Source: a virus
Taxonomy: Duplodnaviria > Caudoviricetes
Virus record (IMG/VR): IMGVR_UViG_3300034095_000299
Location: 1 to 37,761 of that record
Direction: 5' to 3' (one strand)
Length of the DNA: 37,761 bases
In this document: positions 6,506 through 35,150 of the stretch, piece after piece
Position numbering within the stretch: position 1 is the stretch's first letter
How the letters are laid out: every line of letters begins with the position of its first letter
Position numbers and translations under genes: made by a program
Notes under the pieces: generated by a model
The model's input: only the letters and a program-made list of their open reading frames with translations
Told to the model about the DNA's origin: nothing
Databases searched by the model: none

Positions 6506-8563
6506 ATGCCAACAGTCCCAACATCGTTTGTGCCACAAGCCGACATTTCATCACAAGCGGGTGTCGCACCGTTTGAGGCAACGCCCGGTCAGCCAGCACA
6601 GAACCTAGCAGCGGGTCAAGCGGTCGAACTTGGCAACGCATTGGTGCAAGCCGGCAATGTGGAGTACCGCATTGGCGCGATCATGCAGGACAACCTGAAT
6701 GACGGCAACGCCAAACAGGCTGAGACACAGTGGTTGACACAGGCGCAAGACGTGCTGCGCGGTCAGAATGGTTATTTCAACTCGTACGGCAAAGATGCCG
6801 ACACCAAGTATCAGGCAACACAAGACGCGCTGTCAGCGTCTGCAAACGCGGTGATGGATGGACTTGGCAATGACACGCAGAAGGCGATGTTCATGCAAGC
6901 CACTTCCCGGAACATGGCTCAGTTCCGTGGGCAGATGCTTGACCACAAGAGCAAAGAAGCATTTCGGTTTGCTACAAACGAGTCACAGGCTCGCGCAGTC
7001 AACTACATCAGTAACGCCGTCAACGAGTACCAATCACGCGGTCAGGTTGACCAAGACGGTCAGCCAACTGGCGCGTTCAACGCGAGCGCAATGACTGCAA
7101 TCAATGAAACGCGGGAATACGCCAAGAGCGTTGGCATCCCATTGAACTCGTTTCAGATGCTTGAGATGGAGCGCGGCGTAACTACTGCTATCACAGGTGG
7201 CGTTGTCAATCGGCTTATGCTCAATGACGAATACAAGGCCGCGCTTGATTACGTTGTTAGTCAGAAAGAGAACGGCCTCATTGACGAGAAAGCAGCGCAA
7301 AGCCTGTTGACATCAGTTTCAGCAAACCGCGACCGACAGATGACAAGCGAGATTGCCGACAGCATCTACGAACGCGGGACGCTTGACACACCTGCCGGAA
7401 CAGCAAACTTTGAATCGCCTGTAAAGGGTGGGGCAATTACCCTTGTCACTCGACCTGGCAAGGATGGCGAAACGCTTCCTGTTGGCGTGTCAATTACTGC
7501 TGAGGTTGACACTCCTGTTGTCAGCCCGTCGGACGGCATTGTCATTGGCAGGGATGGCAAGGAAACCGTGATCAGAATGGATGACGGGTCAGAGGTGTTT
7601 CTTGAAGGTGTTAGCGACACCGAGTTATTTGAGGGTCAACGATTAAAGCGAGGCGAAGCAATTGGTTCCTTTGCCAAGGACACCCCGGTGTCATATCGAA
7701 TCGTTCGTAATGGTGAACCAATTGACATTCGTAACGTCAACTCCCTTGACCCAACCATGAACAGGGATGCCACTCGACGGCCGCAAACCGAACAAGAGGC
7801 ACTGGCTATTGCAGGGTCAATTGATCGACGCGAGATTAGGGATGCTGTCAAGCAGCGAATCAGTCAGCGGTATTCGCAAGACCGCGCAATGGCAGCGCAA
7901 GAGAACCAGCGCGTTGTTGAGGCAGTTACACGGGCGCAACTGACAGATCCAAATGCTATTGATCCGGCATTGTTTGCCGCTCTCACACCAGCCCAACAGT
8001 CTGATGTCATTGGATACAAGCGCAAAGCAAATGACATGGACATCATGCTTCAAATTGCTGAAAACCCAAGAATTCTTACTCGCCAATTTGTGTTTGACAA
8101 CAAGTCAAAGTTGACCAACGAAACATTTATTAAACTACTCGACCAAGTTGGCAGCGGCAAACTTATTGAAGCAACAGTTGATGCTGACCTAGTCAATGCA
8201 ACACTTGCTGCTAGTGGCTTTAAGTTGACACCTGAACAAAACTTGCAAATGCGCGTCAATATTGAAAATAAGATTTACGAAATGCAATCAGATACAGGCA
8301 AGAAGTTAGATCGCGACCAAAAGCGAATGATCATTGACGCAACAATGGCTGACACCGTAGTTAAGCCGGGTTGGATTTGGGATAGCAAGCCTATGCCGGC
8401 TGCTATTTACACGCCTTCTGAATTGGAAGGTCAAATGGTGACGCTTAATCCTGCACGACGAGCGGCAGTCAACAGGTACTTGCAATCCGAGGGCATCAAG
8501 AATCCGACTCCTAGTCAATTTGAAGCGGCATGGAAAACATTGCGTAAAATAGGAACTAAATGA
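6506..8563 (+). CDS. Internal virion (ejection) protein with a degenerate M23/LytM-like domain
   Basis: 685 aa, mostly helical; segment ~7406-7740 follows the M23 pattern but lacks the Zn ligands. Confidence 0.65.
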   Translation: MPTVPTSFVPQADISSQAGVAPFEATPGQPAQNLAAGQAVELGNALVQAGNVEYRIGAIMQDNLNDGNAKQAETQWLTQAQDVLRGQNGYFNSYGKDADTKYQATQDALSASANAVMDGLGNDTQKAMFMQATSRNMAQFRGQMLDHKSKEAFRFATNESQARAVNYISNAVNEYQSRGQVDQDGQPTGAFNASAMTAINETREYAKSVGIPLNSFQMLEMERGVTTAITGGVVNRLMLNDEYKAALDYVVSQKENGLIDEKAAQSLLTSVSANRDRQMTSEIADSIYERGTLDTPAGTANFESPVKGGAITLVTRPGKDGETLPVGVSITAEVDTPVVSPSDGIVIGRDGKETVIRMDDGSEVFLEGVSDTELFEGQRLKRGEAIGSFAKDTPVSYRIVRNGEPIDIRNVNSLDPTMNRDATRRPQTEQEALAIAGSIDRREIRDAVKQRISQRYSQDRAMAAQENQRVVEAVTRAQLTDPNAIDPALFAALTPAQQSDVIGYKRKANDMDIMLQIAENPRILTRQFVFDNKSKLTNETFIKLLDQVGSGKLIEATVDADLVNATLAASGFKLTPEQNLQMRVNIENKIYEMQSDTGKKLDRDQKRMIIDATMADTVVKPGWIWDSKPMPAAIYTPSELEGQMVTLNPARRAAVNRYLQSEGIKNPTPSQFEAAWKTLRKIGTK

Positions 8564-11500
8564 TGGACAAAGATATTACCGATCCAAGTTTTAAGTACGC
8601 ACCATCACAAAATCCTATTGATGCATTGAACAGTTCCGGATCTGCCGCGTTGCCAAACACAATGGCGCAGCAGGTTGACTTTGTTCCGTCGGGCGATGAC
8701 TTTGCTGACAAGATTGATAGGCAGACGCGCCAGCGCGTTGCCGACCAAACCAACGCCATGAACTTGGCGATTTTCAAGGCAGCAGCCGGCAACCCGGACG
8801 AAGCGGCCGCAGCGCAGCGTCTTGGGTACGAGACAGGCGTTGGTGCAGACATTGCATCACGCAACATGAAGACGCTTCAGGAACGCGCTGCCGTTGACCG
8901 CATTGGTCAATTGGACTTGATGAGGGCTGACCCCATTCTTGCAAAGATGCTGTCCGATCAGAACTTTGCAGCCATTGCGCTTGATGACGTTGAAAACTTG
9001 CAATCCACTGGGTCGATGCTTGACTCGGTAATGGGAGTCAAGAACGAGTTCTTGGCTGGTCGTGAGTACGGATACGCGACAACAAAACTTGGAAGACTTG
9101 GCGGGAAGATGCTTCAAGACTTTTATCTTGGCAAGCCGCTTCTTGAAACCGACCGAGCAGAAGCAAGACGGCAAATTGCCGAAATGCAGAAGTTGCGCGG
9201 CAGTGGTGGGTTTGCTGAGAGTTTTGGTGCGCTTGAAGGGCAGATGGAATCCGGCTTGCCACAACAAATTGAGATGGCGGGTGTTGGAGCGGTTGCCGGC
9301 GGTGCAATTCTTGGTCTGCCTTCGGGCGGCATTGGTCTAGTACCAGGCATGATTGCCGGTGCTGAGTTGGGGTTCTTGTCAGCCTCTGCTGTGCAATCGT
9401 TTGAAATTGAGTCAGGATCGTCGTTCATTGATTTGCTTGAACAAGACATTCCCGAAGACACGGCGCGTACGGCAGCAACCATTGTTGGCACAATCAACGC
9501 CGCGCTTGAAATGATTCCCCTGAAGTTCTTCACTAGCAGGGCAAAGTCGCTGATCAAGTCAACGGTGCAAGAACAGGTAGTCAGTTCGCTTGTGCAGGTT
9601 CCGGGCATTAAGAACGCTGTTGGCAAGTTCATCAAAGAGTGGACTATGGGCATTGGCGTTGAAAGCGTGACCGAAGTTGTGCAAGAAGTCACCAACATCA
9701 CCGCCGAAGAGTTTGCAAAGTACGAAACAGACCCTGAATTTCAAGCAAAGATGACAACACCGGAAGGTCGAATGGAGGTTGCCAATCGCCTTCTTGAAAC
9801 CTTTGAAACAGTAGCAAAGGGCATGGCAGTGATGGGGTTCATCATGCCAGGTGCGAACTTTGCGCTTGACGCGAAACGTGCGCGTAAGGCCAACAAGACC
9901 AAGCAATTCTTCAAGGACATCGGCAAGGACGCTGCAACCTCAAAAGTGCGCGAGCGCAACCCGAACTCCTACCAAGCCTGGTTTGCAGAGCGAGCAAAGG
10001 GAACCGGCGCAGAAACGATCTTCGTTGACGTTGACAAGGTGCGCGGTGCAATGGTCAGGAACGGGATCAACCAAGAGCAGTTGCAGTTCCTGCTGCCTGA
10101 CCTGTACAAGCAGTTGCAAGCAATTGGTGCTAACAGCGGCGTTGATGTCACCATCCCTACGAGCGTGTACGCGGCTCGGTTGGTAGACACGGCATTTGGT
10201 CAGGACTTGCAGAGTGACATGCGTTTGAACCCGGATGACATGTCAATCAATGACAACAACGAGTATGTGAAGTCGAGAGACACTCGCGTCGCTGAGTTGG
10301 TTAAGTTGTCAGAGGAAATGACCGCAAGCGACGAGATCCTTGCCGAAAGCGCAAAGGTAGTAGAGAACCGCGTTGTGTCTGAGATCATGGCGGTAGGCAA
10401 GTACACGGAACTTGAGGCAAAGGCAATGGCCGCTGCTCACGTTGCGTTTGCTGTGGTTAACGCTCAGTCGTTGAACATGACACCTGATCAGTTTGACATT
10501 CAGTACGGCATGGCAACGCGTGGGGAAGGACAGGCAGCACCAGCAGCCGCCTCGCTTGAGCAAGCCTCACGCGTTGATTTAGGACTTGGCGAACAGACTG
10601 AGTTTGACGAGGCAAGTCAACGTCCCGAAGTAGTTACATGGGCAAAAGAGAAGTTTGGCAACCGCACTGCACCGGATGGATCAATTGTGTGGCAGAACTT
10701 TACAGAATGGTTTGGCGATAGCAAGACTGTTGATGCTGAAGGTAAGCCAGTAATGGTTTACCACGGCACAGATAAGAAGTTCACAAAAGTGAACATGAAA
10801 AAAGGTGCGCAAGGGGTGTTTTGGGTTGCGTCTGACAAAGCGGCAATTGAGAGTGGAGAAGTTGGTGCTGCTGGTAGTGGTGTCATTATGGAATTGTTTG
10901 CATCCATAAAGAATCCTGCTGGGTGGAATGAATACGACAAAAAATCATTTGCGGAATTGATTCGAGATGGATATGACGGCGTGATTTTGCGAGACAAAGA
11001 TGGCTCGTTTAATGCGATTGCTTTTACTCCGACTCAAATAAAATCAGCGGGTGAAAACGTAGGTACGTTTAGTAAGACTGCTCCAAGCATTCTTGAACAA
11101 GCCGCTACTGTATCTGCAACCACCTACTCCGCGCTAGACAGGGCCGTAGGCGATGTCACCGCCAAGTCGCTTGTTGCCAGCGGTTGGAAAGAACAGATCA
11201 AGGGCTGGGTCAACAAGGGCATCGTCAAGCAAAGCGAGGTTGAGTGGAGCGGCCTTGTTGAATACCTTGACATGCAGGAAGGGAAGATCACCAAGGAAAC
11301 GGTGAGCGAATTCCTGAAGAACAACGGGGTAAAGGTTGAGACTGTCACGCTTGGTGATCGTGGCGACATGGTGAAAGCCGCTGCAATTAAAGGATCCTAC
11401 GACGCCGAAGCGGCACTTGGTGGGTCATTACAAACTGAATTTGACACTTACCGTAAATTGGTAGAAGCAAACGCGTCGCGTGGTCAAATCGCTGAAGCGG

Positions 11501-14500
11501 CTGTTCCAATCAACAAAGAATTAGAATTTGAGTTTGGAACTGACCTTGATGAGTACATTCGTGATGCCGCCAAAAGTGGTGGTGTTGAAACTAAGTATTC
11601 GCGGTATGTGCTTCCAGGCGGCGAGAACTATCGCGAAATTCTAGTTACGTTGCCTGTTGGGTTTGCGCCACCGGCTCCTGCAATGTCAAAGGAAGGCCTT
11701 GCTGCTCGTCAAGTTGTGTTTGACAAATACGCTCCACGACTTGCAGAAATTGAAACTGAACTCAAGGAATACCGAGGGCCTCAATGGGCTGATGAAGAAA
11801 TATCGGTAGTTAGCAAAGCAATCAATTTGCTCAAAAATGAAAGAGATAAATTAGAAGATAAACGCGACGCTGAAGCAAACGCGTTGTATCGCATTCCAAG
11901 TGCGCCCGAAGTAAAGCCGTTCATGTCTTCGCACTGGGACGAAAGCAATGTTCTTGTCCACCTTCGCATGAACGACCGCACCGATGCCGATGGCAAGCGC
12001 GTGTTGTTTGTTGAAGAAGTGCAAAGTGATTGGGGTCAACAAGGGAAAAAGGTTGGATTTGAAGATGCTCGTGGTCGTTCTGCCGCACTGGCATCACTGC
12101 CAATTGAGCAAAAAAAGTTAGATGAATTGACTCAGGAATACAGTGCAATTAGCCTTATTGATCAAGACCGTGCGGTTCTGTTATATGAACAGGCAGAGGC
12201 GCAACGAACTGTTGTTGAAAATTTGCAATACGCTGCGTATGGGTCTATCAATATTGCTAAAGCCCCATTTGTTGAAACTACAGACGGCTGGCTCAACCTT
12301 GGACTAAAGCATGTCATGCTTGAGGCAATCAACGGCGGCTATGACCGCGTTGCGTTTGTTGACGGAGATCAAAGCGTAACAAGATACAAAGATGCTTTAA
12401 CTGAAGCCGTTGATGAAGTTGAAATTGATCGAAACGATGACGGCACTTACAACTACAAAGCCATTAAGGATGGCAAAGAGTTAAAGGCAGAGAAATCTGT
12501 AACTGCTGAAAGAATCGAAGAGTTGTTTGGAAAATCAGGCGGTGCTGACCTTATACAACAGGCTGACGCTTTCCCTGATCAAATCAACACCATCAAATCT
12601 GAAGATATTAAAATTGGTGGCGAGGGAATGCGGAAGTTCTATGACGATGTGTTGCCATCGGCAATGAACAAATTGCTCAAGAAGTATGGCGGGGAGAAGT
12701 TAGGAATTGCCAAGATAAACATGTCAGGCGATGCATCAAGCAACGCGGAACAACCGTGGAATACTGATGTTGTCCGTAAGGCAATTGCTCGCGGTGCAGA
12801 AATTTACGCCGTTGATAAGAACGGACAAGAATCTTTAATTCGCAATGAAACCGATTTGCAAAAGTTGCTTGATAGTTTAGATGGTGACTTGACTCGCGGG
12901 TTTATCTATGGCGATGTCGGCGGGTTTGATACTCAGCCGTCATTTGATGTCACTGCTGCTTTCATTGAAAAGGTTGGTCAAGGCCTACCGTTGTTCCAAG
13001 CCGCCCCGTCCCCAGGTCGCCGTGGGTCATTCGATCCAACTCGTCTGCTGACCACGCTCAACACGAAGGCTGACCTGTCAACCTTCCTGCATGAATCGTC
13101 GCACTTCTTCTTCAGCGTTTACACAGACATTGCAAGTCGCCCAGGTGCGCCAGCGCGTATCGCCGCCGATGTGCAGATTCTCCTTGACTCGTTTGGTGTC
13201 AAAGACATTGCTGCTTGGAACGCCATGACGTTTGAGGAGCAACGTAAGTACCAAGAGCAGTTTGCTTACAACTTTGAGATTTACCTCTTTGAAGGCAAGG
13301 CTCCGAGCATTGAGATGCAGGGTCTGTTTGAGCGTTTCTCCAAGTGGTTGCGCCGTGTGTACACCTCTATTTCCACCGAACTGAACGACATCTACCGTCG
13401 CGAGTTTGGCGAAGACCTGCCGATCCTGACCGACGAAATCCGTGGGGTCATGGGTCGAATGCTTGCAAGCGAAGCGCAGATCAAGCGAGCGGAGGCTGTC
13501 AATGAAATGAAGCCGCAGTTCCAAACTCAAGCAGAGTCAGGGATGGATGACGCACGTTGGGCTGCGTACCAGGCGATGATTGAAGAGGCGCACGACCAAG
13601 CGGTCACCGATCTGACCAAGGCAAGTCTGCGTCAGATGGAGTGGCTGTCAAACGCCCGTTCGCGATTGCTCAAAAACATGCAGTCAAAGCATGACACGAT
13701 CCGCAAGCAGATGCGTGAGGAAATCGAAGCCGAGGTGATGGCCGAGCCGCTGTACATGGCGATGTCAATCCTAAAGACCGGACAGGGTCGCGCCAAGAAC
13801 GGCGAACTGGTGCAGTTCAACGACAAGTTCAAGTTGAACCTTGAGGCTGTCAAGAAGATGCTGCCGTCCGAGGAGATTGCCAAACTTGGGTACGGCAAGT
13901 ACGGGATGGTGTCTGAGGATGGCATCCCACCTGACATGGTCGCCGAGATCGTTGGCTTTGTGAGTGGCGACGAATTGGTGCTTGCCCTGCTGACCGCCAA
14001 GCCGGCAAAGGAAGAGATTGCCGCTCGACTCGACAAGCGCATGATGGACGAGTACGGCAAGATGAACACCCCCGAAGCAAGGGAGGCTGCTGTACAGGCT
14101 GCGATCCACAACGAAGCCCGTGAGCGGTTTGTTGCCGTTGAGGCGCGTTTCATTGCCAAGGCAACCCAGCCTGTCCGTGTGATGATTGACGCTGCCAAGG
14201 CAGCAGCGCGGCAGATCGTTGGCGCAAAGAAGATCGACGATATCTCCCCAGGCGAGTACGCCGCTGCCGAGGCGCGAGCCTCCCGTGACGCTGCCGAGGC
14301 GTACAAAGACAGACAGACCCCTGACGCTGCCTCCAAATCGACCTACACGCGGGTCTACAACGAGCAGATCGCCAAGGGGGTCGATGAGGCTACCGCTGTT
14401 GCCGAAGCCACTAGCAAGGCTGCTGATGCCTCTACGAAGGCACAGGGCAAGGCTGACGCGTACAAGGCAAAGTACGGCGACCGGACTCCGGAGCAGGTCA

Positions 14501-17094
14501 TCATTCGTGCGAAGCAAGCGCAGGTCTTGCAGAACCAATTGGTCAAGGAAGCGACCTCGTCCCTTGAGGAAGTTGACACCGCTGTCAAGGACTTCCGGAA
14601 GTTCTTCGGTTCTGACGAGAAGATTGCCAAATCGCGCAACATGGACTTGGTTGACGCTGCACGGGCAATCCTGTCGTACTACGGGTTTGGGAAGGTTGGC
14701 AAGAACCCTGCCGACTACATTAGGAAACTTGAGGCATACAACCCTGAGTTGTACGCAGAGATTGAACCGCTGATCAGTCAGGCAAGTACGGGTGTTCAGG
14801 ACTACACACAGATGTCAATGGACGATTTCCGCATGTTGCGCGATGTCGTTGACGCTTTGTGGGCGCAGTCACGACGCGACAAGCAGATCACCGTTGCCGG
14901 CAAGAAGATTGCGCTTGATGGTGTGTTGTCAGAACTTGACGCACGACTCAATGAGATTGGCGTACCAACAACCGTACCAGGCGAGAAGAGCGCACTGACA
15001 ACCAAGCAGAAGTTTGCTGCCCATCTGTACAGCGCAAAGGCATTGCTGCGCCGAGTCGAGAACTGGGCAGACGCAACGGACGGTGCTGGTGGCGTTGGTG
15101 CGTTTACCAAATACATCTATCGGCCTGTAAAGGACGCTGTCAACGCGTACCGAGTAGACCGCAACAACTACGTCAAGCGGTTCGTTGACCTTGTTAGCAC
15201 ACTTGACCTGCCCGTTGGCAAGATCACATCACCGGAAATCGATTACACGTTCGGCGTTGGTAACGGCGGCATTGGTAAGGCTGAACTGCTCGGCGCAATG
15301 TTGCACACTGGTAACGAGAGTAACTACAAGAAGTTGCTAGTTGGTCGTGGGTGGGGGTCACTTAACAGTGACGGAACGCTTGAAACAGCACGTTGGGACT
15401 CGTTTGTTCAGCGGATGATTGCCGAGGGCGTGTTGACAAAGAATGACTTTGACTTCCTGCAATCGGTGTGGGATCTCAACGAGGAAATAAAGCCAATCGC
15501 GCAGAAGGCGCACCGCGACCTGTACGGCTACTACTTCAAGGAAGTTGAAGCAACGCAGTTCACAAACACGTTCGGCACATACCGAGGTGGGTACGTTCCT
15601 GCAAAGACGGACGCGGCAATTGTTCGTGACGCGCAGCGTCAGGCAAAGGCCGAGGAACTCGACGCAGATTTCCGGTCATCTATGCCAAGTACAGGCATGG
15701 GATTCACCAAGAGTCGCGTTGAGTACAACAAGCCACTGAGCCTCGACGTACGGTTGATGGCGAAGCACATTGATGATGTGTTGCGGTTTGCCAACATCCA
15801 GCCGGCTATCAAGGACGCGCTACGCATTGTCAACAACCGTGGGTTCGCTGACAAGTTAAGCCGCATTGACCCGACCGTTGTCGAGTTCATGTTGCTGCCT
15901 TGGCTGAACCGAACCGCCCGTCAGTCAACAAACGAGCCTGGTAGAAATAAGGCCGTTGACAAATTTTGGCGCGTTTTGCGCTCGCGCACAGGCATGGCAA
16001 TTATGTTTGCTAACCTGCGAAACGCATTGCAGCAGGTGACCGGGTTGTTCCCATCTGCGCTCAAGGTGTCGAAAGGCGCGTTGAAGGACTCGCTGCTTAC
16101 TTACCTTGCAAGTCCACGAAAGACCGCCGAGGCAATTGCCGGATTGTCTCCGTTTATGAACGAGCGCATGCACTCGCAAATCTTTGAGATTCAAGATCAA
16201 ATGAACGACCTGCTGTTGAACCCCAACAAGTTCGACAAGATTCAGAAGTGGTCGCAGCATCACGGTTACTTCCTACAGTCAGCGTTTCAAAACTTTGTTG
16301 ACATCGTGACTTGGAACGGCAAGTACAACCAAGTGCTGTCAGAAATTCGTACTACTCTTTCTGACAGCGAGGCACAGGCTGAGGCTATCCAACAGGCTGA
16401 CGCTGCCGTCCGTTCGACGCAGGGAAGCATGTCGGCAGAGGACGTTGCAGCCTTTGAGGTTGGCTCGCCGTTCTACAAGACCTTTGTGCAATTCACGGGT
16501 TACTTCAACATGCTTGCCAACCTGAATACTGACGAGTATGTCAAGGTGTTGCGCGACCTTGGCTGGCGCGGCAACAAGGGCAAGTTGGTGTCAATCTACA
16601 TGCTTGGGTTCCTTGCCCCGACTTTGGTGGCAGACGCTATTGCTCGTTCCCTTGGTGCTGGGTGGGACAATGATGACGATGGATACCTTGACGATGTTGC
16701 TGACTGGTTCTTCGGTAGCCAAGTACGGGCGGGAGCGGCAATGGTTCCGTTCGGGTCAGCCGCCTACACCGCGTTGTCGGCAGGGTTTACCGATAAGACG
16801 TACGACGACCGAATCACAAGCAGCCCATCGGTTGGTTCGCTTGAGGCATCGACTGTTGGTGTTGGCAAAGCCATTGTCAACCTTGCATCTGATGACAAAG
16901 AACTTGAAGGCAGAAACGTGCGCGATGTGTTGACACTCATTACGAATGCAACCGGAGTTCCCGTGTCTGTCCTCGGTCGTCCAATCGGTTACCAAATGGA
17001 AGTCGAGCGCGGGAAGATTGAGCCGACCGGAGCAATTGACTACATGCGCGGACTGATCACCGGAGTGCCAAGCGCAGAGAGTAAGAAGAAGTGA
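8560..17094 (+). CDS. Giant internal virion protein / large polyvalent protein (ART-like, EEVQSD and HExxH domains)
   Basis: 2844 aa; ATGA overlap with the previous gene; VYHGT...GYDGVI...TQIKS, VLFVEEVQSDW and TFLHESSH motifs; helical C-terminal half. Confidence 0.75.
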   Translation: MMDKDITDPSFKYAPSQNPIDALNSSGSAALPNTMAQQVDFVPSGDDFADKIDRQTRQRVADQTNAMNLAIFKAAAGNPDEAAAAQRLGYETGVGADIASRNMKTLQERAAVDRIGQLDLMRADPILAKMLSDQNFAAIALDDVENLQSTGSMLDSVMGVKNEFLAGREYGYATTKLGRLGGKMLQDFYLGKPLLETDRAEARRQIAEMQKLRGSGGFAESFGALEGQMESGLPQQIEMAGVGAVAGGAILGLPSGGIGLVPGMIAGAELGFLSASAVQSFEIESGSSFIDLLEQDIPEDTARTAATIVGTINAALEMIPLKFFTSRAKSLIKSTVQEQVVSSLVQVPGIKNAVGKFIKEWTMGIGVESVTEVVQEVTNITAEEFAKYETDPEFQAKMTTPEGRMEVANRLLETFETVAKGMAVMGFIMPGANFALDAKRARKANKTKQFFKDIGKDAATSKVRERNPNSYQAWFAERAKGTGAETIFVDVDKVRGAMVRNGINQEQLQFLLPDLYKQLQAIGANSGVDVTIPTSVYAARLVDTAFGQDLQSDMRLNPDDMSINDNNEYVKSRDTRVAELVKLSEEMTASDEILAESAKVVENRVVSEIMAVGKYTELEAKAMAAAHVAFAVVNAQSLNMTPDQFDIQYGMATRGEGQAAPAAASLEQASRVDLGLGEQTEFDEASQRPEVVTWAKEKFGNRTAPDGSIVWQNFTEWFGDSKTVDAEGKPVMVYHGTDKKFTKVNMKKGAQGVFWVASDKAAIESGEVGAAGSGVIMELFASIKNPAGWNEYDKKSFAELIRDGYDGVILRDKDGSFNAIAFTPTQIKSAGENVGTFSKTAPSILEQAATVSATTYSALDRAVGDVTAKSLVASGWKEQIKGWVNKGIVKQSEVEWSGLVEYLDMQEGKITKETVSEFLKNNGVKVETVTLGDRGDMVKAAAIKGSYDAEAALGGSLQTEFDTYRKLVEANASRGQIAEAAVPINKELEFEFGTDLDEYIRDAAKSGGVETKYSRYVLPGGENYREILVTLPVGFAPPAPAMSKEGLAARQVVFDKYAPRLAEIETELKEYRGPQWADEEISVVSKAINLLKNERDKLEDKRDAEANALYRIPSAPEVKPFMSSHWDESNVLVHLRMNDRTDADGKRVLFVEEVQSDWGQQGKKVGFEDARGRSAALASLPIEQKKLDELTQEYSAISLIDQDRAVLLYEQAEAQRTVVENLQYAAYGSINIAKAPFVETTDGWLNLGLKHVMLEAINGGYDRVAFVDGDQSVTRYKDALTEAVDEVEIDRNDDGTYNYKAIKDGKELKAEKSVTAERIEELFGKSGGADLIQQADAFPDQINTIKSEDIKIGGEGMRKFYDDVLPSAMNKLLKKYGGEKLGIAKINMSGDASSNAEQPWNTDVVRKAIARGAEIYAVDKNGQESLIRNETDLQKLLDSLDGDLTRGFIYGDVGGFDTQPSFDVTAAFIEKVGQGLPLFQAAPSPGRRGSFDPTRLLTTLNTKADLSTFLHESSHFFFSVYTDIASRPGAPARIAADVQILLDSFGVKDIAAWNAMTFEEQRKYQEQFAYNFEIYLFEGKAPSIEMQGLFERFSKWLRRVYTSISTELNDIYRREFGEDLPILTDEIRGVMGRMLASEAQIKRAEAVNEMKPQFQTQAESGMDDARWAAYQAMIEEAHDQAVTDLTKASLRQMEWLSNARSRLLKNMQSKHDTIRKQMREEIEAEVMAEPLYMAMSILKTGQGRAKNGELVQFNDKFKLNLEAVKKMLPSEEIAKLGYGKYGMVSEDGIPPDMVAEIVGFVSGDELVLALLTAKPAKEEIAARLDKRMMDEYGKMNTPEAREAAVQAAIHNEARERFVAVEARFIAKATQPVRVMIDAAKAAARQIVGAKKIDDISPGEYAAAEARASRDAAEAYKDRQTPDAASKSTYTRVYNEQIAKGVDEATAVAEATSKAADASTKAQGKADAYKAKYGDRTPEQVIIRAKQAQVLQNQLVKEATSSLEEVDTAVKDFRKFFGSDEKIAKSRNMDLVDAARAILSYYGFGKVGKNPADYIRKLEAYNPELYAEIEPLISQASTGVQDYTQMSMDDFRMLRDVVDALWAQSRRDKQITVAGKKIALDGVLSELDARLNEIGVPTTVPGEKSALTTKQKFAAHLYSAKALLRRVENWADATDGAGGVGAFTKYIYRPVKDAVNAYRVDRNNYVKRFVDLVSTLDLPVGKITSPEIDYTFGVGNGGIGKAELLGAMLHTGNESNYKKLLVGRGWGSLNSDGTLETARWDSFVQRMIAEGVLTKNDFDFLQSVWDLNEEIKPIAQKAHRDLYGYYFKEVEATQFTNTFGTYRGGYVPAKTDAAIVRDAQRQAKAEELDADFRSSMPSTGMGFTKSRVEYNKPLSLDVRLMAKHIDDVLRFANIQPAIKDALRIVNNRGFADKLSRIDPTVVEFMLLPWLNRTARQSTNEPGRNKAVDKFWRVLRSRTGMAIMFANLRNALQQVTGLFPSALKVSKGALKDSLLTYLASPRKTAEAIAGLSPFMNERMHSQIFEIQDQMNDLLLNPNKFDKIQKWSQHHGYFLQSAFQNFVDIVTWNGKYNQVLSEIRTTLSDSEAQAEAIQQADAAVRSTQGSMSAEDVAAFEVGSPFYKTFVQFTGYFNMLANLNTDEYVKVLRDLGWRGNKGKLVSIYMLGFLAPTLVADAIARSLGAGWDNDDDGYLDDVADWFFGSQVRAGAAMVPFGSAAYTALSAGFTDKTYDDRITSSPSVGSLEASTVGVGKAIVNLASDDKELEGRNVRDVLTLITNATGVPVSVLGRPIGYQMEVERGKIEPTGAIDYMRGLITGVPSAESKKK

Positions 17095-17154: not shown

Positions 17155-19632
17155 ATGACGATTAGTTCAACAGTACGAATCGCTGGGCCGTTTATAGGCA
17201 CAAGCACAGCGACCGTATTTCCATTCGCTTTCAAGATATTTGCTGCTTCAAACTTGCAGGTTGTTCGCGCTGACTCTTCAACAGGACTTGAGTCAACGCT
17301 CATACTGAACACCGACTACACGGTGTCATTGAACACCGACCAAGACAGCAACCCCGGTGGCAACGTGACGCTCCTCGCCGTACTGGCGACCGGGTTCACG
17401 ATGGTGATCACCTCGGACATTGCGAACCTGCAACCGACCGACCTGACCAATCAGGGTGGCTTCTACCCCGAAGTCATCACGGACGCGCTTGACCGGGCAA
17501 CGATTCAGATTCAGCAGATGGCTGACGAGTTGACACGGTCTATCAAGATCCCGATCTCTGACGGCTTGAGCCTTGACATGGAGTTGCCGCCAGTTTCCGG
17601 AAGATCAAATAAGTATTTGGTATTTGACGCAAACGGTTTGCCAATTGTTTCAGCCGGCTCAGGTACGGATACTGCGCTTCGCACTGATTTGGCTGTATCG
17701 ACGGTTGCTGCCGCAGGTGCTGGTTTAGTTGGATACCGCAATTCTTCTGCATCATCTATCGCACGAACGGTGCTTTCCAAGTTGCGTGACACGGTCAGTG
17801 TCAATGACTTTGGCGCGGTAGGGGATGGGGTGACCGATGATACGACAGCATTTCAAAATGCAATAGCCTCACTTGTTTCAATTGGATGCGGAACATTACT
17901 AATTCCAAAAACAGCCAATAGTTACCGAATTAGTTCTACTGGTGCTTTGTCTGTATCAAACACAAATGGTATTAGCATTATTTCTAATGGAGCAACCATT
18001 GCTTGTTCTGCTAGATCGTCTTTATCTAATGCTACTGGCTTTATTACAGGAACAAATGTTGACAATTTAACTGTTGATGGATTAAGGTTTGTTTGTTATG
18101 ACACTGTTTCTAGATATGGTAATTCCGACGCAGCGTTTGATTCTTACTGTAATACGGCAGATTTTCCCGGGAAAAATCCAAAATGTTCCGCTCCTTATTT
18201 TGGAAGTCTTACCACCATAGTTACAAATTTTAGATACGGTTTACTTTTAACTGATGTTGAAAATGTTGTAATTAAGAATTGTTATTTCGGTAACGATTTT
18301 TATCAACCAATAAATTTTCAAAGTACTGGTTCAACAACACTAGGAACTGGAAACAAGAACATTTTAATTGAAAACACAACATTTGATGGCGTAAATATTT
18401 CGGGTATTTATTGGGAAGAAACAACAAATATTACTATAAATAATTGCTTGTGGAACAACTGTTCGGATACTGATTTGGATCACGCAATATATTTATTCAA
18501 AAATACCAAAAACCTTGTAATTACAAATTCACAAACTATTGGAGGAATGTATGGGGCCGCATTTCCTTTAGGTTTGTACGGTGTAGATACAGTAACAATA
18601 AACAATGTATTGGTTGATAATTGTCACAATATTGCATTATATATGTCTGCTGTATCTCCAACATATGTCGGTGGAAATAATTTAGGTGTTGTAAAAAACA
18701 TAACGGTTAATAATTTTACAGTTGTAAATCAAACTACAAGTTTGTTTGCAACAGCATCTGCCTTAATCTCCATACCAGCAGTAATCGCAAATGAAGTTGG
18801 GGTAGAAAATGTTTGTTTATCAAACATATCTATTTATGGGTGTCTTTCGCCTTGCTTTAGTTTAATGAGTCATGCTTCTGCTGCATCACCACATAAAAAT
18901 ATTGTTTTAGATGGATTTTATTTTAGCAATGCAAATCTTTTAACTGCTAGTAATGGTTGCATGAGTGTAGGAAAATCAACTAATACAGTAATTAAAAATG
19001 GAGTTATCCTTGATGCTTCAAGAATAGCAGGTACTTGTGAAGCAGTAATAACATTACAAACTGATTTAACAAATGTATTAATTGACAATATTTCTATAAT
19101 CAATCAAAGCAGAGCGTTTAATCCTGTTGGTGGAACTGCACCCTTTTGTATCCGTAGTACGGCAACACCAATTACTGGGTTAGTTCAAAATTGCAACTTT
19201 GTTAATTACAATGCTGGTGCAATTAATTCTGCTGATATTGCAAATTACAACACGACACTAAGACATAAAAATCTTGTGACATTTGGAAGATTGGGTTTGT
19301 ATTTTACTTCGGGCCTAACAAATTATTCGCAACCAATAATCATTTCCCAGCCGGAAGTAACGCTTACTGTTAACAGTGCAACTCCAACAGTTCAATATGT
19401 TACTGAGTTTGTAACTGCAAACACAGTTGCTACTAGCATAACAGATTTTACAAATGGAGTTGACGGACAAGAAATAACAGTAAGGGTAAACGATGCAAAC
19501 ACAACATTTGATTTTACTGGGTCATCGCTAAAAGGAAATGTAGGAGTTGATTTTCTTGCAACGAGTGGTGATGTATTGTTTGCTAAAAAACAAGGAAGCA
19601 ACTGGTATTGCACAATCTGCGACATTTCATAA
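17155..19632 (+). CDS. Tail spike/fibre with T7-type N-terminal anchor and parallel beta-helix (putative depolymerase)
   Basis: 825 aa; N-terminal FPFAFKIF...DYTVSL...DALDRATIQIQQ anchor; ARTVLSKLRDTVSVNDFGAVGDGVTDDT (pectate-lyase-3-like entry motif) then Asn/Ile-rich repeats; SD AGGAG. Confidence 0.85.
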   Translation: MTISSTVRIAGPFIGTSTATVFPFAFKIFAASNLQVVRADSSTGLESTLILNTDYTVSLNTDQDSNPGGNVTLLAVLATGFTMVITSDIANLQPTDLTNQGGFYPEVITDALDRATIQIQQMADELTRSIKIPISDGLSLDMELPPVSGRSNKYLVFDANGLPIVSAGSGTDTALRTDLAVSTVAAAGAGLVGYRNSSASSIARTVLSKLRDTVSVNDFGAVGDGVTDDTTAFQNAIASLVSIGCGTLLIPKTANSYRISSTGALSVSNTNGISIISNGATIACSARSSLSNATGFITGTNVDNLTVDGLRFVCYDTVSRYGNSDAAFDSYCNTADFPGKNPKCSAPYFGSLTTIVTNFRYGLLLTDVENVVIKNCYFGNDFYQPINFQSTGSTTLGTGNKNILIENTTFDGVNISGIYWEETTNITINNCLWNNCSDTDLDHAIYLFKNTKNLVITNSQTIGGMYGAAFPLGLYGVDTVTINNVLVDNCHNIALYMSAVSPTYVGGNNLGVVKNITVNNFTVVNQTTSLFATASALISIPAVIANEVGVENVCLSNISIYGCLSPCFSLMSHASAASPHKNIVLDGFYFSNANLLTASNGCMSVGKSTNTVIKNGVILDASRIAGTCEAVITLQTDLTNVLIDNISIINQSRAFNPVGGTAPFCIRSTATPITGLVQNCNFVNYNAGAINSADIANYNTTLRHKNLVTFGRLGLYFTSGLTNYSQPIIISQPEVTLTVNSATPTVQYVTEFVTANTVATSITDFTNGVDGQEITVRVNDANTTFDFTGSSLKGNVGVDFLATSGDVLFAKKQGSNWYCTICDIS

Positions 19633-19641
19633 AGGTGAAAA

Positions 19642-19899
19642 ATGGCTTTATCTAAAACACAACATGTTTTGTATCTTGGAAAAACTTTAGATTTTAATAA
19701 TGCATACATCAAAGTAAATTCATTAAGTGGAAATAAAAACACAATGAATTTAGTTGTAGATATTTTTGATACAAAAGATGGGTTAAAAATATCTGGGATG
19801 GTTTGTGGATTTGTGCATGATCCAAACGAATCAGTATTTAGGCAAGCCTACGAGTATCTTAAAACTTTGCCAGAATTTGCCAACGCCACGGACTGTTAA
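19642..19899 (+). CDS. Small tail-fibre-associated protein
   Basis: 85 aa, same low GC as the spike C-terminus; ends QAYEYLKTLPEFANATDC, a motif I recognise from small genes following tail fibres; SD AAGGTG. Confidence 0.65.
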   Translation: MALSKTQHVLYLGKTLDFNNAYIKVNSLSGNKNTMNLVVDIFDTKDGLKISGMVCGFVHDPNESVFRQAYEYLKTLPEFANATDC

Positions 19900-28858: not shown

Positions 28859-29184
28859 GCCGTCCTCCCAAACAAAGTTGTTGGTATCGGTAATGTCCAC
28901 ACACGCGCTGCTCGGCCTGACCGTGTTGGTCGCTTGCCGTCAGCAACAATCAGTCCATCGTTCATCAGGCTGTTGACACACGCGCTGCAAGTTTGATGTG
29001 TCAAAGACAATCGCACCTCAAGTTCGTCGCAAGTGCCTGGTTGTTGAGTAATCGCGTCAAGCACTAACGCGTTTAGCGTCCCAAGGCGCGGTTGAATGTC
29101 TGACCACGCTGCGTCTTGTGTATCCCACCGCGTTGTTTGCCGGCGCGTACTGCGCGGTTCGTTGCCGTCAAGTGATCGTTTCAT
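28855..29184 (-). CDS. Winged-helix DNA-binding protein
   Basis: Start revised to ATG 29184; VLDAI...GTCDELEVRLSLTHQTCSACVNSL..DGLIV..GKRPTRSGRAARVW. Confidence 0.75.
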   Translation of the reverse strand: MKRSLDGNEPRSTRRQTTRWDTQDAAWSDIQPRLGTLNALVLDAITQQPGTCDELEVRLSLTHQTCSACVNSLMNDGLIVADGKRPTRSGRAARVWTLPIPTTLFGRTA

Positions 29185-30293
29185 GCGATTTCCTTTGCCT
29201 TTACAGCGGCAATATGATTTCCAAGGTATTCGTGTGAATAACAAAGGCGATGAGCATGTTTCATCATGTAGCGTTGCTCATATGCGCTTTTGCTAATGTT
29301 GTAATCTTCGCGTGTGCGTTGATTTTTGCTTGTCGGTTTCCACAAAGAAGACCGATTTCTGTACTCGCCCATGCGCGGATGTGCAGTTTTGGAGAAATAC
29401 CGACAACCTTGACGGACAAATAATTCAGCCGCAGCGTCAGAAATTCGTACCCCTAATCCTAAGCCTTGGTAATCAGGAAGCACCACAGTTCTATGTCCAC
29501 GCCAAGCGTTTTTTAGGTTTCCATTTGGGAACGGGAGAACAGCAGAGAATCCGACAGGGGTTCCGTTCCAACAGACGATCCAACACCGTGCGCATTTATT
29601 GATGTTTCCGTCGAGATAGTGATGGTTGCGGAACATTGCCCATGCTTCGGTGGAACAAGGAAGCATTTCCAAAATAATGTTTGGTCGCCTTTCATACCCC
29701 CTTGCGATGAACTTTTCGCTGCTTGTGTCAAATACCCAATCAGGACGAAGCCATTCAATTATGTCGTAATGGCATGAAGCAAACACCAATTTCTTAATGT
29801 TTTTTTGATCAACATAACGTCGAATAGAATTTGCACATGATTTAGCAACATTTCTGTCTACTACGGAAGTAAATTCATCAATTACAGCACCATCTTGCAA
29901 TCGTCTAGCCAAGTCTGCACGAAACTTTTCTCCCGTTGATAGAACATGGTATGGACGCATCCATGCAGGAATAGAATTAAAGCCAACGGCAGACAATCGT
30001 TCACTGGCATCTATGTCATTGTCAAAATGAGAACAAATAGCAAGTTGCGAATTCCATGTAATGGCTGTTTCGTTGCCAAATTGCTTTAGAATAGTTGATT
30101 TGCCTGTTCCTGATGCTCCAACAATTAGTCCAATTCCATATTCTAATGGAAGCATTGGAAGGCGCGGCGGAATAAATTTACTAGTTCCATCAAACGCATA
30201 ATCAAATGCGGCTGATAGTTTTTTTACCGTGTCGTCTATTTGCACAGAAACGGTGGCCGCTTCAATGTTTGAACATTCAAATAAATAGTTCAT
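29181..30293 (-). CDS. ABC-type ATPase fused to a GNAT (Mom-like) acyltransferase
   Basis: 370 aa; Walker A GASGTGKS, signature LSTGEKFRA, Walker B AVIDEF, H-loop ASCH; C-terminal FRNHHYL...RTVVLPDYQGLGLG acyl-CoA-binding motif; no transmembrane partner gene. Confidence 0.8.
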   Translation of the reverse strand: MNYLFECSNIEAATVSVQIDDTVKKLSAAFDYAFDGTSKFIPPRLPMLPLEYGIGLIVGASGTGKSTILKQFGNETAITWNSQLAICSHFDNDIDASERLSAVGFNSIPAWMRPYHVLSTGEKFRADLARRLQDGAVIDEFTSVVDRNVAKSCANSIRRYVDQKNIKKLVFASCHYDIIEWLRPDWVFDTSSEKFIARGYERRPNIILEMLPCSTEAWAMFRNHHYLDGNINKCARCWIVCWNGTPVGFSAVLPFPNGNLKNAWRGHRTVVLPDYQGLGLGVRISDAAAELFVRQGCRYFSKTAHPRMGEYRNRSSLWKPTSKNQRTREDYNISKSAYEQRYMMKHAHRLCYSHEYLGNHIAAVKAKEIA

Positions 30294-31321: not shown

Positions 31322-31600
31322 TTATTTAGTCTCGCCTAGTGCAATAAACGCTGCAATGTCTGTCTCGGTTGTAAAGCGTTGACCACCAACCCAAATGTGC
31401 TTTATCTGTTGCGTGTGCATCCATCGGTGAATAGTTGCACGGGATATGGTCAATCCGTACTTTGTCTTAAATAGTTCTCTTACATCACTTATCTTGAGCG
31501 CAGGTTCCTTTGCCTGTTCGTTTGCTAATCGTTGAATTTCTCGCGCTCCGACGCGTTGTCCTTCTTTTTGCGCCCATCTTTGAGGTCGTGTGTTTGACAT
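31322..31600 (-). CDS. Excisionase/MerR-type HTH protein (DUF1580-like)
   Basis: Start revised to ATG 31600; ISRATIHRWM...WVGGQRFTTETDIAAFI. Confidence 0.7.
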   Translation of the reverse strand: MSNTRPQRWAQKEGQRVGAREIQRLANEQAKEPALKISDVRELFKTKYGLTISRATIHRWMHTQQIKHIWVGGQRFTTETDIAAFIALGETK

Positions 31601-31653
31601 GCCATGCACCTTTCTTGTTTGCGTTATCAGCGGCACGCGCCTTTGACTTCAGT

Positions 31654-31682
31654 ACTCTACGACAAGGTATATCGGTACGCAA
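31654..31682 (-). promoter_or_regulatory. Leftward early promoter
   Basis: Minus strand TTGCGT (31682-31677), 17-nt spacer, TAGAGT (31659-31654), upstream of the first leftward gene. Confidence 0.55.
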
Positions 31683-31784
31683 GGGGTAGTACATGAGTTT
31701 GTTGACAGATTTCTGCATAATTGCAGTTTCCTAACTACAAACACGCATAAAATAAATTGACAGACGCGTCATGTATAGTGTCGG

Positions 31785-32620
31785 CGCGGAGATGTGGGTG
31801 AGACTCCCATTTGCGACGAGGCACAAGGCCGCAAGGTACGCCCCTCGTTTCCCAGGCAATGGGGTAATTAACCTACCGACAAGACAGGGCGCGGCAACGC
31901 GCTGCTGTCTGCATAAACCTATGAATAATTTAAACCTTTATGCAGATCGACATAGTTGAATGACTGTGTCGATGCGGTCAACATTCCAATTTGACCTGCA
32001 TTTCCTGCTCCGGAAACAAACGCGGCTCGGGACTTTCGTCAACCGAGCCGCGCATCCGGGGGACTTGAGTGTACCAAAGATACGGCGTAGATCGAAACCT
32101 ACGCCGCTCCATGGTAACGGGTTTGTGGTACTGTGCGTTCTTGTCTAGGGGATCACAAGTAACAACCGACACACAGTACGCATTTATTTCCAAACTCTTT
32201 GACCTGGTCGATACGCGCCGATGACGGCATATGCCAACAGGCGATTGACACTTGGTTGAAGGGATGCGGAGACACGGACGGCGGAACGTCCGGCGAAATC
32301 ATGGGTAAGGCAAGCAACCGTCATGTGGGTTCACCGAATAGTTTCGGATCCCGTAGTGCTTCCAGCGTGGCAACTGCGCTTTGTGCAGACGGAATGAATA
32401 GGACGGTAGTAAGACCTTTGTGATCGGTGAGATACCCGGCGAAGGCCGACTGTGTTTGACAGTCGTAGGTGCAGGTGCGCAACCTAGGCGAATTTGTCCT
32501 CGCTAAAATTGGGGCAGCACCCTCTTCTGTTGATGCGCGGCTCCGGCCATGCAACGACGCAGTAGCCCCGCCGAGGGGTTACTGCATCCACGCTCTCCGG
32601 TCATGCAACGAGGGATGTGC
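31785..32620 (+). ncRNA. Candidate large structured non-coding RNA (or structured single-stranded DNA element)
   Basis: At least 15 nearly contiguous inverted repeats, GCAA tetraloops and G-U pairs on the plus strand, no credible ORF; TATAGT at 31774-31779. Boundaries approximate. Confidence 0.6.
32541..32611 (+). repeat. 17-nt direct repeat flanking an 11-bp hairpin
   Basis: CTCCGGCCATGCAACGA (32541-32557) and CTCCGGTCATGCAACGA (32595-32611), 16/17 identical, either side of GCAGTAGCCCC-gccga-GGGGTTACTGC. Confidence 0.85.
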
Positions 32621-32774
32621 AAAGCCAAGCAGTACGTCGACAAATCGTCAGCATCGAAGTGCTTGAAAAAACGAAATTTCAAAAACAAACCTACTCAATT
32701 GAATTCAAAGACCCGGCCTAATACCATCGAATTCGATGGGTTTAACTATGCACGTTTGATAGACATGCATAGAT

Positions 32775-32803
32775 TTGCGCGTAACTTGAAACATGTATAT
32801 ACT
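32775..32803 (+). promoter_or_regulatory. Rightward promoter, probably giving a leaderless mRNA
   Basis: TTGCGC-N17-TATACT, then 7 nt, then ATG 32811; no SD. Confidence 0.6.
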
Positions 32804-32810
32804 CTCGCGT

Positions 32811-33260
32811 ATGACAACAATCACATGGATGGACAACCGAAAGTTGATGGAAGAGATGTGGCCGAAGTGGAAACTTGAGCCTGTGCTGTCAAGTTTATTG
32901 AACGAGAAGTGGGGGTCTTTGCATCAGGACAAGTTGCAAGCATGCATTCGCCAGCACCGACTTGTTCGTGACTTTAAGCCTGAGATTGCAGCGATACACA
33001 AAGCGTATTGCGCTCTCATCCCTCAGAACCTAGTAGGTGAACGCGAGGTTGAACAGACTCGCAACGACCTACAGCGTTGCACCCCGATCAGCACTGAAGA
33101 GTTTGCTGAGTGGGATGTGTGGGCTGAAGCAATGCTCAAAAACGTGTCCGACGCGGAACTTGAACAAGTGCGCGAGTTCATTGGTCATGTACCGGAGTCA
33201 CGCCGAATCCTTGCCGTTGCTGTTGAGCATGTCCGCAAGCCATCCGTGAGGTACGCATGA
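32811..33260 (+). CDS. Putative replicative helicase loader/inhibitor (G39P-like)
   Basis: Start revised to 32811; W..L..DKLQACIRQH...DFKPEIAAI resembles the (F/P)xPxIAEI motif of phage helicase loaders. Weak, by eye. Confidence 0.45.
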   Translation: MTTITWMDNRKLMEEMWPKWKLEPVLSSLLNEKWGSLHQDKLQACIRQHRLVRDFKPEIAAIHKAYCALIPQNLVGEREVEQTRNDLQRCTPISTEEFAEWDVWAEAMLKNVSDAELEQVREFIGHVPESRRILAVAVEHVRKPSVRYA

Positions 33261-34587: not shown

Positions 34588-34830
34588 ATGACTATAAACA
34601 CTTACGACGAATTCAAAACGCATATCCGCGAGACACTTGAGTCGCAAGGATCGACACGCGGGGAACTTGCGGTTGCAATGGATAAGGCAGGGATACTCCG
34701 AGCGCACACGGTGAGGTGCTTGCTTGGTACGCCCGGTACGGTGATCGGTAAACGAAAGCCAGCATTCGACTCTGCGCTTGCCATTGCCGGCGCAGCAGGG
34801 TTCGACATCGTCCTGCGTAAACGCACATGA
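34588..34830 (+). CDS. Small HTH-like protein, probably leaderless
   Basis: 80 aa; TRGELAVAM...HTVRCLL...RKPAFDSALAIAGAAGFDIVL; TATACT (34575-34580) lies 7 nt before the ATG. Confidence 0.65.
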   Translation: MTINTYDEFKTHIRETLESQGSTRGELAVAMDKAGILRAHTVRCLLGTPGTVIGKRKPAFDSALAIAGAAGFDIVLRKRT

Positions 34831-35150
34831 TCACCAAGCGTATAGCCATCGTCGCTGTTAATGAAGACGGCTATCGCATCGGGCAATCGCATCACAACGC
34901 AAGAATCTCAGATTATGCAGTACAGTGCATAAGAGACGCACGGGAGGAAAGAGGGCTTTCCTACGGCAAATTAGCGTCAATGTTTAAACTCTCAAAGTCC
35001 ACCATACAGAAATTATGCAACTATGAAAGACGCGCCCAAATCCCTCGCGCTTACAAAAAAGTCACCCAGTACCTCTGTGATCAAGCGACCAGTGGGCAAG
35101 CCGAAGCGCGGCCCGGTCATGCACAACCCCAAGGCAGCGGAAGTACTTGA
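34827..35150 (+). CDS. HTH DNA-binding protein
   Basis: 107 aa; GQSHHNARIS...GLSYGKLASMFKLSKSTIQKLCNYERR. Confidence 0.7.
   Translation: MITKRIAIVAVNEDGYRIGQSHHNARISDYAVQCIRDAREERGLSYGKLASMFKLSKSTIQKLCNYERRAQIPRAYKKVTQYLCDQATSGQAEARPGHAQPQGSGST

Follow-up and report, generated by a model that had tools for sequence, protein, structure and literature searches.

The stretch at positions 31785-32620 of the window (by which we mean the whole 37,761 nt of phage DNA analysed here) is a cluster of separate elements, comprising a tRNA mimic, two likely minus-strand terminators and a large RNA gene, that had been misread as one molecule. The phage RNAs in this cluster are undescribed; the best reading of the large one is that it substitutes, as RNA alone, for a replication initiator. 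Its family is confined to related phages without an initiator-type gene, and it thus likely starts DNA copying as an RNA primer. The predicted mechanism, a primer and R-loop origin resembling that of ColE1 RNA II and replacing a lambda O-like initiator, has in our estimate a probability of about 55%, while some role of the large RNA in replication initiation is highly probable.

The IMG/VR record corresponds to an 88% complete virus encoding a T7-like tail, internal virion genes, terminase, Erf, RusA and Gam. Scans of the window ORFs (40 against PHROGs and 21 against Pfam) yielded no polymerase, primase or initiator; one ORF gave a weak PHROG match to 'helicase', its Pfam match being a MarR-type HTH. 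The helicase, primase and polymerase scans covered the window and a 31-ORF subset of genome G002. The stretch sits between divergent early operons and is best read as a hub for control and replication in a podovirus-like phage. Judged by the capsid protein (76%), the nearest phage with a named host is Limnohabitans phage DC33, from which the large RNA family is absent, and BLAST of 31700-32700 against 50,697 phage records gave no match. TGCATAA/ATGCA and TTGACA motifs recur around divergent promoters (31711-31762 and 32750-32770) and are candidate operators for the HTH proteins encoded at 31325-31636 and 34827-35147. Elsewhere in the window, a 370-aa protein (29184-30293, minus strand) has a P-loop region fused to a GNAT acetyltransferase domain, and all PHROG matches of a giant 2844-aa protein of the virion region (8560-17094, plus strand) are of unknown function.

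The large RNA family and its genomic slot

The large RNA lies between A1, the tRNA mimic described below, and a gene starting at 32811. Among 61 distinct loci spanning this slot, 49 contain the RNA only and 12 a DUF1376-like gene only, with no locus containing both or neither; where A1 occurs alone, the DUF1376 gene precedes the 32811-family gene. In 34 whole records chosen by hand (17 RNA carriers, 12 with A1 only and 5 terminase relatives), the DUF1376 initiator is present in 0 of 17 RNA carriers and in 16 of 17 non-carriers (Fisher p = 1.5e-8, on rows that are not independent). PF07120 likewise matches none of the 17 carriers and 6 of 6 controls, and the large-RNA model (model R2) matches 0 of 21 other records. 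In the carriers, 13 of which are at least 90% complete, a replicon-encoded initiator protein was found in 0 of 17 with a DUF1376 query, with PF07120 and with Phage_rep_O, HTH_36 and Phage_rep_org_N (PF04492, PF13730 and PF09681). The initial annotation had offered three guesses at a function, namely replication primer, protein sponge or scaffold, of which the first is now the best supported. One terminase relative (G032, the record of L056, 98% complete) has neither the RNA nor DUF1376 and may hold a third type of replication module.

The replaced gene scores above the DUF1376 cut-off and is annotated in PHROGs as 'primosomal protein'; from this annotation and its position, it is likely a replication initiator. 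Its homologue in L227 contains internal iteron-like 12-mer repeats. The neighbouring gene (32811-33260, plus strand) is leaderless (TTGCGC-17-TATACT-7-ATG) and is kept in both RNA-type and initiator-type phages. Its product matched nothing in Pfam, PHROGs or PDB, the last compared both by profile and by fold; PF11417 occurs on 11% of a 0.93 cluster, and rows for G39P/G40P loaders reached E values of 0.27-2.7, below significance. We regard it as a candidate helicase loader, weakly similar to G39P. All sequences come from related metagenomic phages, and the functions given for DUF1376 and the 32811 protein are annotations.

Two trees indicate that the exchange between initiator and RNA recurred, in more than one event. 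On the tree of the 32811 family (39 rows) the label changes 3 times, with at least 2 changes forced; on the A1 tree (48 rows), built from short, stem-rich sequences and with 3 labels taken without confirmation in the stored locus, it changes 8 times, with at least 4 forced and one clade rejected. A1 is 99% identical between L160, which has the RNA, and L165 and L178, which have the initiator. Haplotypes with an HNH gene ahead of the large RNA of the window, B, possess the same switch-like leader as the initiator genes and start with MAT-, like several initiators; the window haplotype has lost both leader and HNH gene. In the conserved leader of L186, L180, L088 and L322, GAGCGNNTGC covaries with its complement about 45 nt downstream. 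This leader, for which L088 gave no Rfam gathering match, is likely a translational or attenuation switch ahead of the initiator.

B is predicted at 32142-32611 on the plus strand, with a putative 5' end and conservation in relatives from about 32150. Sequence comparison places a candidate extended -10 box (TG-G-TACTGT, 32129-32134, plus strand) ahead of it; in haplotypes with an HNH gene this site stands ahead of leader, HNH gene and B. B is a member of an undescribed family of RNAs of 300-470 nt (types B, D and E). The 3' pattern common to the family was found at 96 viral loci, of which 93 are real (62 of type E, 16 of B, 12 of D and 3 others), and L311, L322 and L354 are intermediates joining D and E. 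The E structure, derived from the same 18 sequences on which it was scored, has 65 pairs including a pseudoknot, with 97.8% paired and changes on both sides in 28 of the pairs. On its plus strand the family has GNRA and UNCG loops and invariant G-U pairs. The 15 distinct B sequences show little divergence and are too alike for a covariation test; compensatory changes occur in L041 and L138 (32196-32262 and 32415-32445), and the long-range ATGACGG/CCGTCAT stem (32221-32324) does not vary from one B copy to another. A model made from the family without B has its best window match at 32458-32611 (22 bits, E = 1.6e-5, the next best there being 0.054; E = 6.8e-6 in a second run), a weak match suggesting that B is homologous to E. 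The AACCU strand at 32481-32485 (plus) pairs with GGGUU at 32576-32580 in a long-range helix that covaries across D, E and the intermediates (GACCC/GGGUC, AUCCC/GGGAU, AACCC/GGGUU), with B aligned there. This helix competes with the local hairpin at 32559-32585, and the two likely form a folding switch.

Among the matches listed in a metagenome scan for the large RNA, 4 of 80 loci were real; three of these four have A1, two the 32811-family gene and none an initiator. Two unrelated HNH genes precede B, one in L088 (3745-4338, HNH_3+AP2) and one in L134 (2874-3551, HNH, below cut-off); they share the same first residues and stop exactly at the start of B. Such genes, which precede B in many haplotypes and are missing from the D and E variants, are likely homing elements that spread the B cassette. 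In L037 and L311, a short ORF for a basic protein of about 50 aa, which contains a GDP(N/D)W..TIPL motif, ends at the start of the D-type RNA; it is leaderless in L037. The contig of X4 record 26 (window 32204-32629) follows B from 32204 on and has unlike sequence upstream, which suggests another 5' variant of B.

A candidate RNA-primed origin

In lambda, loss of the O gene removes the initiator together with its internal origin. If loss of the O-like gene had the same effect here, the RNA must supply or enable origin opening. We propose that host RNA polymerase would transcribe B from about 32142, and that the folded 5' part of B would position R1 (32535-32557, plus strand), the inner copy of an imperfect direct repeat, for pairing with the template DNA strand at R2 (32590-32611, plus strand), the 3' copy and candidate hybrid and origin site. 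The RNA-DNA hybrid would then persist at the 3' end of B, opening the origin as an R-loop, and would be turned into a primer or D-loop by RNase H and Pol I. On the displaced strand the 32811 protein, which is retained, would load the host helicase, with a leftward antisense RNA limiting firing.

Besides the antisense elements of the E type and the weak likeness of the downstream gene to G39P, the scheme is in keeping with R1 and R2, which covary by identity: across 12 classes their tails agree at 45 of 60 positions, where 100,000 shuffles gave a mean of 25.5 and a maximum of 42. Mismatches combine G in R1 with A in R2 at 7 positions and A with G at none; C/T and T/C are each seen at 3, in a comparison from which 3 misregistered rows had been removed. 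The G/A bias is compatible with wobble pairing of R1 RNA to the template strand of R2; the R1 hairpin and shared ancestry may account for part of the excess. A DGR/DRT was rejected, as reverse transcriptase PF00078 is found in 0 of 17 carriers and the repeat mismatches are not confined to adenines. AT-rich tracts follow R2 in the window clade, and GC skew singled out no origin. The E type has antisense promoter elements, with a -10 box in 18 of 18 rows and a -35 box (at least 4 of 6) in 16 of 18, whose hexamers fall within a stem; upstream, 11 of 12 have a minus-strand terminator. B and D yielded no antisense promoter, and of these elements the window has the terminator alone.

The slot-exclusion data could also arise if B, in place of the initiator, acted as a diffusible scaffold bringing the 32811 loader or host restart proteins to a DNA origin nearby, without itself being the primer, a role for which the elaborate pseudoknotted fold and the AT-rich tracts after R2 would also be suitable. 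However, a scaffold leaves the identity covariation of R1 and R2 unexplained, and B, D and E are swapped before near-identical 32811 proteins, so that no co-evolution of protein and RNA is seen. We consider a scaffold rather unlikely.

The presence of two different HNH genes before B in many haplotypes, and of Erf, RusA and Gam genes in the window, raises another possibility: the RNA could be a selfish or accessory element, spread by the adjacent HNH gene, that displaced the initiator in a phage replicating by recombination (Erf/RecT, RusA, Gam), its own job being unrelated to replication. Yet none of the spanned loci lacks both RNA and initiator, D and E keep their fold without an HNH gene, and searches yielded neither a reverse transcriptase in the 17 carriers nor an intron model match, so this explanation appears improbable. 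A slightly smaller chance still is left to the structure acting as single-stranded DNA, as a primase or primosome assembly signal replacing an iteron origin, with transcription merely opening the duplex. Covariation is the same for RNA and single-stranded DNA, and the A2 palindrome (see below) behaves as a DNA element. The contigs from 4 RNA runs span coding and non-coding parts equally (X4 mapping) and, being contigs only, carry no information on strand, ends or level. Against such a signal stand the GNRA and UNCG loops and invariant G-U pairs of the plus strand, and a multi-domain fold of 300-470 nt with a candidate promoter exceeds the usual size of such single-stranded DNA signals. The RNA primer is our preferred reading of B.

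Separate elements within the 836-nt stretch

The initial annotation described near-continuous plus-strand structure and a single RNA of about 830 nt. The stem arms that it listed are present, at the positions given or at most 2 nt off, and the plus strand folds better than shuffles (-339.9 kcal/mol over 836 nt, z -9.47, 20 shuffles; minus strand z -4.05, 20 shuffles). The plus-strand stems are real, but the signal is patchy, some hairpins belong to the minus strand and homology is broken. By part, z is -6.9 for 31908-32003, -5.7 for 32004-32066, -2.1 for A1, -1.2 for B alone and -3.0 for the 3' core of B, against a background in which 11 of 77 windows of 120 nt elsewhere in the genome have z < -2 (lowest -6.5). 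The strongly folding windows elsewhere include 19681-19800 (z -6.5), 18721-18840 (z -4.5) and 1921-2040 (z -3.6).

The view that undescribed functional non-coding RNA is encoded here was supported. No Rfam family reached its gathering score in the window, 31500-32900 gave only two chance matches at E <= 10, and relatives contain covarying RNA families. No tRNA or tmRNA was found in the window by ARAGORN, in agreement with the annotation, nor any tRNA gene near the region in the window and relatives (Rfam scans and ARAGORN covered the window and member loci), and an ORF conserved across the region, sought in the relatives, was not found. RNase P, tmRNA, group I/II introns, SRP domain IV and HEARO, compared by their known motifs, were rejected for lack of a model match or for a wrong order of elements; for group I/II introns there was no Rfam intron match and no flanking exons were observed. 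Six motif strings were absent from the searched part of the supplement of PMC10690425, a catalogue of candidate RNAs that may hold either RNA unnamed.

Among relatives (80 terminase-anchored and 42 32811-anchored loci), the anchored loci retain 31771-32076, followed by B, HNH gene and B, short ORF and D, or E. Homology has breakpoints near 32076 and 32150, and the interval holds unrelated cassettes or an HNH gene. More distant phages retain only 31786-31912, the hairpin at 32014-32066 being carried separately, and B, D and E are interchanged among phages with 97-100% identical terminase. A1 lacks the large RNA in 32 of 70 A1 loci. The single RNA of about 830 nt was not supported by this comparison, since its parts evolve separately, and one 830-nt fold is unlikely given the modular conservation, the invertible A2 loop and the minus-strand A3 and terminator-like site. 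An ornate RNA of the GOLLD/ROOL type would fit the folding score of the whole span and the fact that all 59 loci with both have A1 on the strand of the large RNA (so that a read-through precursor is possible), but its parts are separable, 400-1385 nt apart with ORFs inserted, minus-strand elements lie inside and Rfam holds no match, which makes it very improbable.

Several small elements separate A1 from B. A2 (31908-31946) is an AT-rich palindrome. Of 28 distinct haplotypes, 4 (L023, L027, L028 and L138) have its loop in inverse orientation, and the palindrome is likely a DNA site rather than an RNA structure. Two small hairpins at 31946-31999 occur in the close clade only, the first being deleted in L041. 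A3 (32004-32066, minus strand) is a terminator-like hairpin with a GAAA/GCAA loop and a U-rich tail; the GNRA loop and U-tract of the 32021-32052 hairpin fall on the minus strand. A3, found alone in L047, L048 and L075, is likely a terminator of leftward transcription; a strict terminator scan of the window did not flag it. A leftward -10 box (TACACT/TATACT, 32068-32073, minus strand), a putative promoter, marks the end of close-clade conservation. It is followed by a terminator-like hairpin (32082-32107, minus strand) flagged by the terminator scan (2 found, 1.5 expected by chance), which matches the position of the antisense-RNA terminator in E-type relatives (11 of the 12 E loci displayed). 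Two hairpins that had been listed as plus-strand RNA both resemble minus-strand terminators instead. In L074, L278, L314, L340 and L383, but not in the window, a conserved element, CCTCGTCAGAGAGG, lies between the leftward -10 box and A3, ahead of the RNA or initiator promoter, and is possibly another small leftward RNA.

A1 (31786-31912, plus strand) is a circularly permuted tRNA mimic, predicted from a model, a 63-row alignment, tertiary covariation and bulge palindromes. It consists, in order, of the anticodon-stem 3' strand, a variable loop (AGAU), the T arm, a capped acceptor-like arm with a 7-nt bulge, the D arm, the anticodon-stem 5' strand and a 3' hairpin. A -10 box (TATAGT, 31774-31779, plus strand) precedes it; of 49 distinct upstream sequences, 47 have a TANNNT hexamer 6 nt ahead of the A1 start. 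A sigma-70 consensus scan found no full promoter for A1 in the window. A pattern scan recovered at least 119 viral loci. Of the large-RNA loci with enough flank, 53 of 61 have A1 upstream on the same strand. A pattern scan of GTDB for A1 gave 27 loci, real only in L383, a 3.4-kb phage-like contig binned as Nocardiaceae, so that no host is assigned.

The A1 model (model R1), built from 18 distinct sequences, aligned 63, including members found via the large RNA. In this alignment, which was fitted to the structure, 98.3% of cells are paired and both sides change in 26 of 37 pairs, against at most 12 when pairing partners are slid. We placed A1 positions on tRNA numbering by our own assignment. 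A1 covaries at the tRNA tertiary contacts 15-48 and 22-46: among 38 distinct cores the Levitt pair (15-48) is A-U in 22, G-C in 10, A-C in 4 and G-G in 2, and the rows have A/A (49), G/G (13) or A/G (1) at positions 22/46. U8, G9 and G12-C23 are invariant, these positions being part of the search pattern for most rows. The T-loop-like hairpins noted in the initial annotation were supported; in A1 the T-loop is canonical in few rows and insertions are frequent. A1 is not a circularly permuted tRNA gene, as its acceptor arm consists of 4 bp, bulge, 7 bp and cap and it has no anticodon loop; a tRNA model matched only the 3' half of L159 (20 bits) among A1 loci.

At bulge positions 2-5 (of 7 nt), 7 of the 15 distinct 4-mers are palindromes, and 43 of 58 rows have one (binomial p 1.5e-5, in a register picked after inspection; other loops gave 0-2). 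This suggests that A1 could homodimerise through its self-complementary bulge in most clades, the window's own clade (CCCA bulge) being an exception; a role of the bulge as antisense seed was dropped in favour of self-complementarity. In A1, as in the YrlA Y RNAs (RF02553; PMC4201824; bioRxiv 10.1101/312249), the arms follow the order T-acceptor-D, the acceptor arm is closed and the Levitt pair covaries. In contrast to them, A1 has often lost the T-loop and the GG of the D-loop, and has a longer acceptor arm (palindromic bulge, GNRA cap) and an additional 3' hairpin. The long terminal Ro60 stem with the YrlA 5' GNCGAAN0-1G motif is absent from the window copy, which starts GCGGAGAUG (the A1 terminal stem is 3-4 bp), a Ro60 gene (TROVE, PF05731) was found in 0 of 6 records, and RF02553 gave no match at E <= 10 in the window and 12 member loci. 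A1 would then be a separate core RNA beside the primer RNA, tentatively a putative tRNA-shaped decoy or adaptor for a host tRNA-binding protein.

Known RNA replicons and the meaning of the exchange

In ColE1, an upstream RNA segment pairs with the template strand near the origin, and a G-stretch is involved. The lambda O-P and SPP1 G38P-G39P modules encode an initiator and then a loader. Our slot resembles them in the order of initiator and loader and in the iteron-like repeats inside the initiator gene of sister phages, but in the window a non-coding RNA gene stands where the initiator gene would be.

In the ColE1 system, a transcript of 550 nt stays bound as a persistent R-loop; RNase H cleaves it and Pol I extends it, the helicase is then loaded on the displaced strand, and an antisense RNA exerts control (PMC5043065). 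An RNA pair replicates ColE1 and the marine RNA-based (MRB) plasmids without an initiator protein (PMC5043065, PMC3035462), and as of 2010 RNA-mediated initiation was described there for these two plasmid types only (PMC3035462). B shares with ColE1 RNA II/RNA I (PMC5043065, PMC6380287) the lack of a replicon-encoded initiator and a predicted structured non-coding transcript of about 500 nt, and the E type a predicted short antisense unit at the 5' end of the long RNA. However, compared with these accounts, B belongs to a tailed phage, has no Rfam match and swaps with an O-like initiator gene ahead of a phage loader-like gene, and the antisense overlap is only about 15-20 nt in the E type and putative in B. 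The MRB plasmids of Vibrio, a protein-free RNA replicon that evolved independently (PMC3035462), indicate that the principle can arise repeatedly; these Vibrionaceae plasmids are described as conserving RNA I, whereas the phage family conserves the long RNA. GOLLD, ROOL and OLE (PMC12286853) are likewise large, structured, pseudoknotted RNAs with loop self-association, GOLLD and ROOL being phage-associated; unlike them, the window RNAs are shorter, match no Rfam model, have no tRNA genes nearby and are tied to a replication slot. The logic of mutual exclusion has previously been applied to helicase loaders (PMC11087808), and among the titles screened there was no report of RNA-mediated initiation in a tailed phage.

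It is tempting to suggest, at somewhat less than even odds, that a freshwater tailed-phage lineage has repeatedly traded its protein initiator for a self-contained RNA origin. This would be a third, independent family of primer RNAs, with R1 as internal guide to R2, swappable B, D and E types partly spread by HNH genes, opened DNA passed to the phage loader, and a self-dimerising, Ro60-independent tRNA mimic alongside. A1 contributes a tRNA mimic whose tertiary covariation is unusually clean and for which a dimer interface is predicted. Large non-coding RNAs of bacteria and phages mostly have no assigned function, and the natural exchange of a gene for an RNA points to one here. If our reading is correct, RNA can substitute for an O-like initiator inside one phage family, forming a minimal replicon with a predictable guide-target rule, which would account for phage genomes seemingly without replication genes.
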